From the NCBI RefSeq assembly GCF_003334255.1, contig NZ_QOWU01000076.1: 16,778 nucleotides of DNA; one strand, written 5' to 3'. A program made the position numbers and the translations under genes. Below are positions 4,663-15,038 of this stretch, one piece after another (the stretch's first letter is position 1; each line of letters opens with the position of its first letter). The notes beneath the pieces are model-generated. The model was not told where the DNA came from, ran no database searches, and saw only the letters and a list, made by a program, of their open reading frames with translations. The DNA comes from Escherichia coli (GTDB lineage: Bacteria; Pseudomonadota; Gammaproteobacteria; Enterobacterales; Enterobacteriaceae).

Positions 4663-4776
4663 CTAATTGATTTTAAACGATACGTAACCAACTTTAAAAT
4701 CTTTGCACGCCAGTTCGCAGGTTTTACAGCCAGTACAGCGGCTGGAATCGATAAAAAATCCATATTGTGTGGTCAT
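4663..4776 (-). pseudogene. ynfG: 5' fragment of ynfG (DmsB-like 4Fe-4S subunit gene): 28 native codons, then 9 foreign codons and a stop
   Basis: Translation from the ATG at 4774-4776 gives MTTQYGFFIDSSRCTGCKTCELACKDFK (matches the ferredoxin-type DmsB/YnfG N-terminus as I recall it), then VGYVSFKIN-stop; RBS aaggag sits 7 nt upstream of the ATG and 10 nt after the ynfF stop. Confidence 0.7.
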
Positions 4777-4786
4777 GGGCTACTCC

Positions 4787-7210
4787 TTAAACCTTTTCGA
4801 TCTGGACAAGATTGCTGTGCGACGGGTTTCCCTTTGCCAGCGGTGAAGGGCGGTGAGAGGTCAGAATATTGATACTGCCGCCGTGATCGACCCGGTCACC
4901 AAACATATCCGCTTTAAGCCACGCACCTTGCCCGATGGCGGTAACGCCAGGCAGAATACGCGGAGTCACTTTTGCGGCAATCAGCATTTCTCCATTATTG
5001 TTAAATACCCGCACGGTATCGCCATGACGGATACCGCGTGCCTGAGCATCAATGGGGTTGATCCACACCTCTTGTGGGCAGGCCTGCTGTAACACATCAA
5101 TATTGCCGTAGCTGGAGTGGGTACGCGCTTTGTAATGGAAGCCCGTTAACTGCAGTGGATAGGTTTTCCGCAGGGGATCGTCCCAGCCATCAAAACCTGG
5201 GGTATACGCAGGAAGGGGATGAATAATTTCATCTTTTTTCAATTCCCAGGTATCTGCAATCTTCGCCAGTCGTTCAGAATAAATTTCGATTTTCCCCGAA
5301 GGTGTTTTCAACGGGTTTGCCTGTGGATCTTCACGGAATGCGCGGAAAGCGACGTAGTGTTCTTCCGGGCATTTTTTCTTAAAGATCCCGGTCGTTTTCA
5401 TCTCCTCGTAGTCGGGCATCTCAGGGTTACGTTCCTTCGTTTTCGCATGGAGATATTTGATCCATTCATGCTGACTGCGACCTTCAGTAAAGGTTTGATA
5501 AACGTCTGGTCCTAAGCGTTTGGCGACTTCACTCAGCATCCAGTAGATGGGTTTGCGTTCAAATTTTGCTGAGGTTGCGGGTTGGGCGAGGATCACATAG
5601 CCCATATTCCCTGCAGATTCATGAGAGATAAGGTCTTCTTGCTCTGTTGGCATCAGGTCGGGCAACAGGATATCGCAATACTTAGCCGAGGCCGTCATGA
5701 AGTGGTCAATGCCAACAATCATCTCGCACTTGCTGTCATCCTGAAGCACCTCATGGGTGTGATTGATGTCGCCATGTTGATTGATCAATGTGTTACTGGC
5801 GTAGCACCATAAAAACTTGATGGGGACATCCAGTTTTTCTTTTCCACGAACACCATCACGGGTCGCGGTCATTTCCGTACCATGGTCGATGGCATCTGTC
5901 CATGTAAAGACGGAAATCTGCGTTTTAACAGGATTCTCGAGCATCGGGAACCATTCTACCCCCAGATCCCAGCTACCTTCGCGTACGCCTGAGTTGCCGC
6001 CGTTTATGCCGACGTTGCCGGTGAGAACGGAAAGCATGGCAATAGCGCGGGATGTTTGCTCGCCGTTGGAATGTCGTTGTGGCCCCCAACCCTGACAAAT
6101 ATAAGCAGGTTTTGCTGAACCGATCTCTCGTGCCAACTGGATAATTTTTTCTGCCGGGATGCTGGTGATTTTTGCTGCCCATTCCGGCGTTTTAGCTATG
6201 CCGTCAGGCCCTTCGCCCAGAATATAGGCTTTATAATGCGCGTTACGTGGTGCGTTGGCGGGCAGCGTTTTTTCATCGTAACCAACACAATATTTGTCGA
6301 GAAATGGCTGATCGACCATGTTTTCAGTAATCAGTACCCAGGCAATCGCACAGGCCAGTGCGCCATCGGTGCCAGGGCGAATGGGCAGCCATTCATCTTC
6401 ACGCCCGGCAGCAGTGTCGTTATAACGTGGATCGATGACGATCATGCGTGCGTTTGAACGTTCGCGGGCTTGCTCGACGTAGTAAGTGACACCACCGCCG
6501 CTCATCCGCGTTTCTGCCGGGTTATTTCCGAACATAACGACCAGTTTCGTATTGGCGATATCATCCGGGCTGTTGCCATCATTGGCACCGAACATATAAC
6601 TCATTGCGGCACTGATCTGTGCGGTACTGTAGCTGCCATAGCGACTGAGAAAACCACCGCAAGAGTTCATCAGACGGTACGGGACGTTTGAGTTGGTGAT
6701 GTTTCCGCCATCTACGCCTGTTCCGTACAGGACATGTACAGCCTCATTGCCGTAATCTTTCAGGATCCGCCGAAGATTATCACTGATGGTATCTAGGGCT
6801 TCGTCCCAACTTATCCGTTCAAATTTACCTTCACCGCGCTTGCCGACGCGCTTCATGGGATATTTCAACCTATCAGGATGATTCATCCGTCGGCGGATAG
6901 AGCGCCCGCGTAAACACGCTCGAACCTGATGATTACCGTAGACGTCGTCACCTGTCGTATCAGACTCCACCCAGTACACGGTGTCATCTTTCACATGCAA
7001 ACGTAACAGACAGCGGCTCCCGCAGTTAACGGTGCAGGAACTCCAGACCGCTTTCTCTTCTACCGGAGCCTCTGCCGCCCGGACCATTTGGGAAAATGGC
7101 AGAGTGAAAGCACTGCTTGCCAGCGCAAGACTGCCAAGTGCGGAGGTTTTCATCAGACTTCTACGGCTGATTTCAGCCTTCATGAGCGCCTCTGTGGTAT
7201 GGATTTTCAT
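4787..7210 (-). CDS. ynfF: Tat-exported molybdopterin (bis-MGD) oxidoreductase catalytic subunit, DMSO-reductase family paralog YnfF
   Basis: Twin-arginine signal (ISRRSLMK), N-terminal Cys cluster (CTVNCGSRC), about 808 aa with typical DmsA-family length. Start taken at the second of two adjacent ATGs (alternative start 7213). Confidence 0.9.
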   Translation of the reverse strand: MKIHTTEALMKAEISRRSLMKTSALGSLALASSAFTLPFSQMVRAAEAPVEEKAVWSSCTVNCGSRCLLRLHVKDDTVYWVESDTTGDDVYGNHQVRACLRGRSIRRRMNHPDRLKYPMKRVGKRGEGKFERISWDEALDTISDNLRRILKDYGNEAVHVLYGTGVDGGNITNSNVPYRLMNSCGGFLSRYGSYSTAQISAAMSYMFGANDGNSPDDIANTKLVVMFGNNPAETRMSGGGVTYYVEQARERSNARMIVIDPRYNDTAAGREDEWLPIRPGTDGALACAIAWVLITENMVDQPFLDKYCVGYDEKTLPANAPRNAHYKAYILGEGPDGIAKTPEWAAKITSIPAEKIIQLAREIGSAKPAYICQGWGPQRHSNGEQTSRAIAMLSVLTGNVGINGGNSGVREGSWDLGVEWFPMLENPVKTQISVFTWTDAIDHGTEMTATRDGVRGKEKLDVPIKFLWCYASNTLINQHGDINHTHEVLQDDSKCEMIVGIDHFMTASAKYCDILLPDLMPTEQEDLISHESAGNMGYVILAQPATSAKFERKPIYWMLSEVAKRLGPDVYQTFTEGRSQHEWIKYLHAKTKERNPEMPDYEEMKTTGIFKKKCPEEHYVAFRAFREDPQANPLKTPSGKIEIYSERLAKIADTWELKKDEIIHPLPAYTPGFDGWDDPLRKTYPLQLTGFHYKARTHSSYGNIDVLQQACPQEVWINPIDAQARGIRHGDTVRVFNNNGEMLIAAKVTPRILPGVTAIGQGAWLKADMFGDRVDHGGSINILTSHRPSPLAKGNPSHSNLVQIEKV

Positions 7211-7270
7211 CATTACTCACTTATTGCTTTTCAAACAAAATGTCATGCCAGAATTTATGGTTGTCGTGGG

Positions 7271-13839: not shown

Positions 13840-13850
13840 GGAGTAAGATA

Positions 13851-14870
13851 ATGAAAAGCATATTAATTGAAAAACCGAATCAACTGGCGATTGTCGAACG
13901 TGAAATACCCACCCCGTCAGCGGGTGAAGTACGAGTAAAAGTGAAACTTGCCGGAATTTGTGGTTCAGATAGCCATATTTATCGTGGGCATAATCCTTTT
14001 GCGAAATATCCGCGCGTCATTGGTCATGAATTCTTTGGCGTCATTGATGCAGTGGGTGAAGGCGTGGAAAGCGCCAGAGTCGGTGAACGTGTTGCTGTCG
14101 ATCCGGTGGTCAGCTGTGGGCATTGCTATCCGTGCTCTATAGGTAAACCGAACGTTTGTACGACACTGGCTGTATTAGGTGTGCACGCTGACGGTGGTTT
14201 CAGTGAATATGCCGTGGTTCCGGCAAAAAATGCGTGGAAAATTCCTGAAGCAGTGGCCGATCAATATGCGGTAATGATCGAACCTTTTACCATTGCGGCT
14301 AACGTAACCGGACATGGTCAACCGACTGAAAATGATACCGTTCTGGTTTATGGTGCCGGTCCAATCGGCCTGACGATCGTTCAGGTATTAAAAGGCGTCT
14401 ATAACGTTAAAAATGTGATTGTTGCCGATCGCATTGATGAACGACTGGAAAAAGCGAAAGAGAGCGGGGCTGACTGGGCGATTAATAACAGCCAGACACC
14501 GCTTGGCGAGATTTTCACTGAAAAAGGCATCAAGCCGACATTAATTATCGATGCGGCTTGTCATCCTTCTATCCTGAAAGAGGCCGTAACGCTGGCTTCT
14601 CCAGCGGCACGTATTGTATTGATGGGGTTCTCCAGTGAACCGTCTGAAGTGATTCAGCAAGGAATTACCGGAAAAGAACTCTCTATTTTCTCTTCACGCT
14701 TAAATGCAAATAAATTCCCGATCGTTATCGACTGGTTAAGTAAAGGGTTAATTAAACCAGAAAAATTAATTACCCATACGTTTGATTTCCAGCATGTTGC
14801 TGATGCCATTAGTTTATTTGAACAGGATCAAAAACATTGCTGCAAAGTCTTACTCACTTTTTCTGAATAA
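13851..14870 (+). CDS. rspB: Zn-dependent medium-chain dehydrogenase RspB, 339 aa
   Basis: Zn-ADH motifs (GICGSDSH, GHEFFG, CGHCYPC); start at MKSILIEKPN, 11 nt after the rspA stop, with RBS aaggag (operon). Confidence 0.9.
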   Translation: MKSILIEKPNQLAIVEREIPTPSAGEVRVKVKLAGICGSDSHIYRGHNPFAKYPRVIGHEFFGVIDAVGEGVESARVGERVAVDPVVSCGHCYPCSIGKPNVCTTLAVLGVHADGGFSEYAVVPAKNAWKIPEAVADQYAVMIEPFTIAANVTGHGQPTENDTVLVYGAGPIGLTIVQVLKGVYNVKNVIVADRIDERLEKAKESGADWAINNSQTPLGEIFTEKGIKPTLIIDAACHPSILKEAVTLASPAARIVLMGFSSEPSEVIQQGITGKELSIFSSRLNANKFPIVIDWLSKGLIKPEKLITHTFDFQHVADAISLFEQDQKHCCKVLLTFSE

Positions 14871-14927
14871 TACCAATAACGGCGAGTAAGTAGTACGCAT
14901 CTTACCTCTTTTTTAGAGATAACCATT

Positions 14928-15038
14928 ATGACAATAGAAAAACACGAAAGAAGCACTAAGGATTTGGTGAAAGCAGCAGTATCGGGATGGCTGGGCACTG
15001 CGCTTGAATTTATGGATTTCAAGAGTCATGCGTGTTAA
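14928..15038 (+). pseudogene. 5' remnant (36 codons) of an MHS-type MFS transporter gene (ydfJ-like), interrupted at a prophage junction
   Basis: MTIEKHERSTKDLVKAAVSGWLGTALEFMDF resembles the N-terminus and first TM motif (G..LE(W/F).DF) of ProP/ShiA-family transporters; the reading frame then diverges and stops. In K-12 a ydfJ gene is split by the Qin prophage (recalled, not verified). Confidence 0.5.

Follow-up and report, generated by a model that had tools for sequence, protein, structure and literature searches.

The window analysed here is a 16,778-nt stretch of the Escherichia coli contig NZ_QOWU01000076.1 (assembly GCF_003334255.1), in which a chromosomal block carrying the ynf, speG and rspAB genes lies between two segments of prophage DNA. 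With a probability of about 0.97, this block is normal E. coli core chromosome between two unrelated, independently integrated temperate phages, and nothing in it is rearranged. Comparison with E. coli K-12 shows two independent site-specific recombinations, attributed to unrelated tyrosine integrases, one at CTTTAAA in ynfG and the other at TTATGGATTTC in ydfJ. Both junctions are already published attachment sites.

The original prediction, made from the sequence alone, described a conserved block of 10.3 kb with both junctions inside genes and phage DNA abutting each side. This description is confirmed, and its coordinates, 4693 and 15020, are accurate to within one base. Of the two explanations that it offered, two independent integrations are borne out, and a rearrangement between prophages with shared homology is not.

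Source and gene order

The window is 100% identical to positions 2574295–2591072 of the E. coli G1/2 chromosome (NZ_CP060083.1), and two sister isolates match it likewise. G1/2 was isolated from the faeces of a healthy human, and all three G strains are identical. Coordinates labelled L001, L002 and L003 are those of stretches of the G1/2 record. Its order of genes is clcB-dmsD-ynfH-ynfG' / int...prophage...ant / 'ynfG-ynfF...rspB-ydfJ' / intQ-xis...Qin...ynfT / 'ydfJ-ydfI, where the left prophage divides ynfG and the right one, Qin, divides ydfJ. Table 1 lists the features of the window.

Table 1. Features of the 16,778-nt window, with positions counted from its first letter.
Feature	Position	Strand	Basis
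Attachment-site-proximal (attR, right) end of the 61.9 kb ynfG prophage, 933W/PhiR5_2-type	1–4691		RefSeq annotation, PhiR5_2 match, PHROG matches
Giant LPD38 protein, C-terminal end	1–268	+	Annotation
Panacea-domain open reading frame (ORF)	419–943	+	Annotation
IbrB-like ParB-type protein	1032–1676	-	Annotation
IbrA-like PAPS reductase	1661–2887	-	Annotation
AntA/B antirepressor	3084–3713	-	Annotation
ant N-terminal fragment	3963–4247	-	Annotation
Non-coding attR arm	4248–4691		Annotation
attR core CTTTAAA, 7 bp	4692–4698		Three-way attL/attB/attR comparison; BLAST breakpoints overlap by 7 bp
ynfG 5' remnant, 28 codons (MTTQYGFFIDSSRCTGCKTCELACKDFK), ATG at 4776	4692–4776	-	Translation against K-12 YnfG; annotations
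Core-genome block, unrearranged	4787–14870	mixed	Annotation; 99.974% gap-free identity, K-12 gene order
ynfF	4787–7210	-	Annotation
ynfE	7271–9697	-	Annotation
ynfD	9896–10201	-	Annotation
ynfC	10309–11019	+	Annotation
speG	11022–11582	-	Annotation
ynfB	11617–11958	-	Annotation
ynfA	12093–12419	+	Annotation
rspA	12625–13839	+	Annotation
rspB	13851–14870	+	Annotation
Ancestral ydfJ 5' remnant, 31 codons	14928–15020	+	Translation, reconstruction of full-length ydfJ; K-12 annotation; PMC6379469
Qin attachment core TTATGGATTTC, 11 bp	15010–15020		Repeat search across both junctions; empty-site match
Qin int-proximal end	15021–16778		Annotation; 99.97% to K-12 Qin up to IS2E; PHROG matches
Integrase IntQ, intact	15058–16338	-	Annotation, PHROG integrase match
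Excisionase	16373–16624	-	Annotation, PHROG excisionase match
Exonuclease gene, start	from 16697	-	Annotation

Collinearity with K-12

A single, gap-free BLAST alignment joins positions 4692–16217 of the window to K-12 MG1655, with 99.974% identity over 11,526 nt, three mismatches and equal spans. The identity runs straight through the right junction. When about 130 kb of G1/2 around the window is compared with K-12 MG1655 by BLAST, the host segments from ynfM to ydfI fall in one order and one orientation, and the collinearity is not broken at any prophage boundary. The missing halves of ynfG and ydfJ were checked for a position elsewhere or an inverted orientation, and show neither.

At one end of each prophage stands its integrase and at both ends its own core, and outside these come the two halves of one target gene, in their original order and orientation. 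No hybrid prophage with mismatched attachment sites or target-gene halves is seen. The left integrase and the Qin integrase are 24% identical. In a BLAST of one prophage against the other, the two have at most a 518-bp segment in common, at 82% identity, so that long, highly similar segments common to both are lacking, and all of the shared segments are in direct orientation.

Recombination between lambdoid prophages is known in E. coli, and an inversion, deletion or translocation through homologous recombination of two related lambdoid prophages could have made the block or shifted it, each flank then being chimeric. Both flanks are indeed of lambdoid type and in the same orientation, and they share the few short direct segments mentioned above. 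Against this, order and orientation agree with K-12 on either side of both prophages, the cores of each prophage match and both halves of its target gene lie beside it, the rebuilt empty ydfJ site is matched at 100%, and the shared homology does not exceed 518 bp at 82%. Nor is either prophage chimeric, since the right one is 99.9–100% identical to K-12 Qin in the parts they share, and the left one is collinear, where compared, with phage PhiR5_2. The BLAST of about 130 kb against K-12, together with that between the prophages, leads to the rejection of such a rearrangement, the chance of which is negligible.

The left junction in ynfG

Homology to K-12 starts at position 4692, within ynfG. 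The 28-codon remnant left beside the block, annotated in RefSeq as a partial 4Fe-4S protein (4693–4776), holds the first CxxCxxCxxxC iron-sulfur motif. The other 540 nt, the 3' part of the gene, lie 61.9 kb away, adjoining the prophage integrase and followed by ynfH-dmsD-clcB. The same CTTTAAA is found at attL (L002 7079–7085) and in the intact K-12 ynfG, at codons 27–29. The core is thus a direct repeat at both prophage ends and occurs once in the uninterrupted gene, with zero host bases lost; the two halves tile the intact K-12 ynfG, and their sole overlap is the 7-bp core. Some additional imperfect similarity extends beyond this core on the phage side of attL. The prophage measures 61,915 bp from core to core.

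A tyrosine integrase of 387 aa stands 52 bp from the ynfG' remnant and matches PHROG integrase families with E values of 1e-85 to 1e-106. It is 100% identical to that of PhiR5_2, 99.7% to those of the Shiga toxin (Stx) phages POCJ13 and 75/02, and 99.5% to that of phiSTEC1589-Stx1c. For the Shigella Stx phages POCJ-13 and 75/02, ynfG is given as the integration site (PMC5447701), and a 62.5 kb Stx1a prophage is reported in the ynfG of E. coli RM10410 (PMC10562709).

On this evidence, a 61.9 kb prophage of the 933W type, Stx-phage-like but stx-negative, recombined through its own tyrosine integrase at CTTTAAA in codons 27–29 of ynfG. The insertion splits the ynfEFGH-dmsD operon, and ynfH-dmsD would now lie 62 kb further from the ynfE promoter. 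By what is generally known of DmsB-type iron-sulfur subunits, YnfG should be inactive, because its first CxxCxxCxxxC motif is separated from the remainder of the protein, and the strain would lack this iron-sulfur subunit.

The right junction in ydfJ

The annotated K-12 boundary of Qin, 1652745, corresponds to window position 15021. The ydfJ remnant reads five more codons into Qin DNA, which gives the 36-aa YnfP of the K-12 annotation (14928–15038). The core TTATGGATTTC recurs at the far end of Qin (L003 31978–31988), beside the rest of ydfJ and then ydfI. When the host sides are joined over a single core, the rebuilt empty rspB-ydfJ site of 600 nt is found in other genomes in one piece, with 600/600 positions identical. 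In the distal ydfJ remnant of G1/2, there is an extra in-frame deletion of 150 bp (50 codons) relative to K-12, at about L003 32642 (record position about 2638641).

Older genome papers list ydfJ as the Qin site, and a later study places Qin at the 5' end of ydfJ, with 28 N-terminal codons lost, in 48% of strains (PMC6379469). In G1/2, Qin recombined through its own tyrosine integrase at TTATGGATTTC in ydfJ codons 28–31, and this is the same event as in K-12. The insertion removes the ydfJ promoter and 28 codons, so the strain would carry the usual Qin-type truncation of YdfJ.

The whole Qin of G1/2 is 48,684 bp long (L001 31021–48778 plus L003 1–31988; record positions 2589304–2637987). Its identity to K-12 extends past the junction into intQ, is broken at the IS2E point, and resumes at 99.9–100% from dicB through the lysis genes and pinQ to ynfT. 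The annotated genes that match K-12 at this level are dicA/B/C, relBE, hokD, rem, ydfU/T, cspB/F/I, essD, rrrQ, pinQ, tfaQ, and ynfT. An ISNCY fragment is also present, and ISEc12 lies inside lom.

Frequency across genomes

Counts were taken over 5,426 complete genomes. The ynfG'-int junction (attL) occurs in 89 of them and the phage-'ynfG junction (attR) in 82, or about 1.5%. At least 4,686 genomes have ynfG intact, and in 83 the ynfG probe is found in two separate places, which is taken to mean that the gene is split in two. The rspB side of Qin is present in 2,674 genomes (49%), K-12 MG1655 included, and the far (ydfJ) side in 2,660, while the ydfJ site is empty in 2,011. For each prophage, the near-equal counts of the two ends are the pattern expected of simple insertions.

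The Qin insertion is probably old and mostly vertically inherited, as its junction is near-identical to that of K-12 and present in about half of the genomes. The ynfG prophage looks like a recurrent and more recent acquisition, and its carriers include Shiga toxin-producing E. coli and O104:H4 strains. Genomes of the O104:H4 outbreak lineage (2011C-3493, C227-11, HUSEC2011, and others) have the same ynfG'-integrase junction, and hence a prophage in ynfG. By the original prediction's own account, a reference comparison showing both junctions to be ordinary, widely shared prophage endpoints would count against it; the K-12 comparison and the genome counts show ordinary integration endpoints, a widely shared Qin, a recurrent ynfG insertion, and no rearrangement at either junction.

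Assemblies classically go wrong at prophage repeats, and the left prophage of G1/2 has many annotated frameshifts, so one or both junctions might be misjoins across repeated prophage DNA. However, at least 80% of the window is covered in one place in 37 complete, independently assembled genomes that have both junctions together, the junctions occur separately in the 82 and 2,674 genomes counted above, and the block is free of indels against K-12 over 11.5 kb. The recurrence of the junctions in independent genomes leads to the rejection of an assembly artefact, and a misjoin is scarcely credible.

Recombination or transduction may instead have brought in the ynfG prophage, the block, and Qin as a single unit from another strain, in place of two integrations within this lineage. 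As an import would allow, the three G strains do not differ from one another, and the complete arrangement is found in other genomes at 97.9–99.5%. It would nevertheless alter only the time and place of the integrations, not the nature of the junctions; the 99.97% identity of the block and Qin to K-12 agrees with vertical descent within a K-12-like background, and the ynfG prophage occurs with and without Qin-type neighbours. An import of this kind is very improbable.

No finding contradicts two simple insertions into an unrearranged chromosome, and only two minor points qualify this reading. The surplus of attL over attR (89 against 82) reflects a few genomes with a different or decayed right end. 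A large inversion with its end points elsewhere in the genome would lie outside the comparison of about 130 kb with K-12, and would not involve these junctions.

Content of the ynfG prophage

Positions 1–4675 of the window match the end of Escherichia phage PhiR5_2 (PV340546.1) at 100% identity; that record is of a phage genome and names K-12 MG1655 as the host. From the integrase on, the prophage comprises a lambda-like early region; a SASA esterase, holin, and lysozyme; a terminase, annotated in PhiR5_2 as being of the headful type; an N4-gp56-type capsid protein; and the 8.3 kb LPD38 protein. The left prophage of G1/2 was searched for stx genes and tRNAs, and none were found. The position that Q-stx1AB takes in strain 2009C-3133 is filled here (L002 25977–28054; G1/2 2535976–2538053) by a different ORF of 208 aa and then 1.4 kb without a convincing ORF or tRNA, ahead of the SASA esterase.

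Frameshifts are annotated in the terminase, portal, capsid, and LPD38 genes, and an IS1 insertion sequence lies in the tail region (L002 33399–39611 and L001 7904–16268). The left prophage is probably truly decaying and not badly sequenced, because the adjacent chromosomal block has zero indels against K-12.

Near attR, the cargo region holds the IbrB/IbrA-like pair (1032–2887, minus strand), which PhiR5_2 also has and which is unaligned in 933W and 75/02, where other cargo is carried. A PADLOC search of the phage ORFs in the window and both integrases gives weak BrxP and DndC-like matches to the IbrA-like PAPS reductase only, and calls no defence system. The Panacea ORF (plus strand) directly follows the LPD38 'polyvalent' protein (8.3 kb), whose G1/2 annotation shows a frameshift. 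The Panacea domain is typical of antitoxins, and no obvious small toxin partner lies beside this ORF.

Two full-length matches to sRNA-Xcc1 (Rfam RF02221) are found on the minus strand at 3754–3839 and 4288–4376; their scores of 73 and 69 bits exceed the gathering score of 53. An AntA/B copy lies just downstream of each, the full gene in one case and the fragment in the other, and the module of RNA plus ant is duplicated in tandem, its copies about 530 bp apart. The RNA may act on ant as a leader or a regulator.

Delayed excision could let in-situ packaging run into the ynfF-speG-rspAB block and Qin, which would amount to high-frequency lateral transduction. This idea follows from the headful-type annotation of the PhiR5_2 terminase and from the late genes, which point towards attR. 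It is an unlikely one, and in G1/2 it is disfavoured by the annotated frameshifts in terminase, portal, and capsid. If it were true, the place of the block between two prophages of the same orientation would matter for gene flow.

Comparison with known systems

The significance of the arrangement goes little beyond bookkeeping, as it consists of two documented prophage attachment sites 10 kb apart. It resembles the prophage-mediated inversions and deletions, such as those of the O157:H7 lambdoid prophages, in having two lambdoid-type prophages close together. It differs from them in that collinearity is unbroken, neither prophage is chimeric, and a long shared segment of high identity is absent.

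The left prophage of G1/2 is collinear with PhiR5_2 at 94–99.6% (over the first 50 kb of PV340546.1), and PhiR5_2 is also stx-negative. Its attR arm is homologous to those of POCJ13 and 75/02 up to the core. In strain 2009C-3133, a Stx1a prophage occupies this ynfG site with the same dmsD-ynfH-ynfG'/int layout and the same overall 933W-type architecture, but carries Q-stx1A-stx1B ahead of the SASA esterase, whereas G1/2 is without stx. The cargo region of G1/2 differs from those of 933W and 75/02 in holding the IbrAB cassette in place of theirs, and the G1/2 copy is set apart from the ynfG Stx-phage group by its IS1 insertion and several frameshifted morphogenesis genes. The ynfG site is of some epidemiological interest, since it is used by Stx1 phages of Shigella and E. 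coli and here holds an stx-negative relative in a commensal from a healthy person.

Qin in G1/2 has the same ydfJ attachment site and junction as in K-12, with 99.97% identity through the junction, and its site and frequency agree with PMC6379469. Both copies contain intQ, dicB, dicA, dicC, relBE, hokD, cspB/F/I, essD/rrrQ, pinQ, and tfaQ. In contrast, the G1/2 copy is 48.7 kb long against 20.5 kb in K-12, and still has the lambda-like head and tail module, 22.8 kb in length, which is gone from K-12. Its intQ, xis, and exonuclease genes are intact, whereas K-12 has the IS2E truncation; it is without ydfA-ydfC and carries the ISNCY fragment and ISEc12. The G1/2 Qin is a fuller, much less decayed form of the K-12 cryptic prophage and could help to reconstruct its decay.

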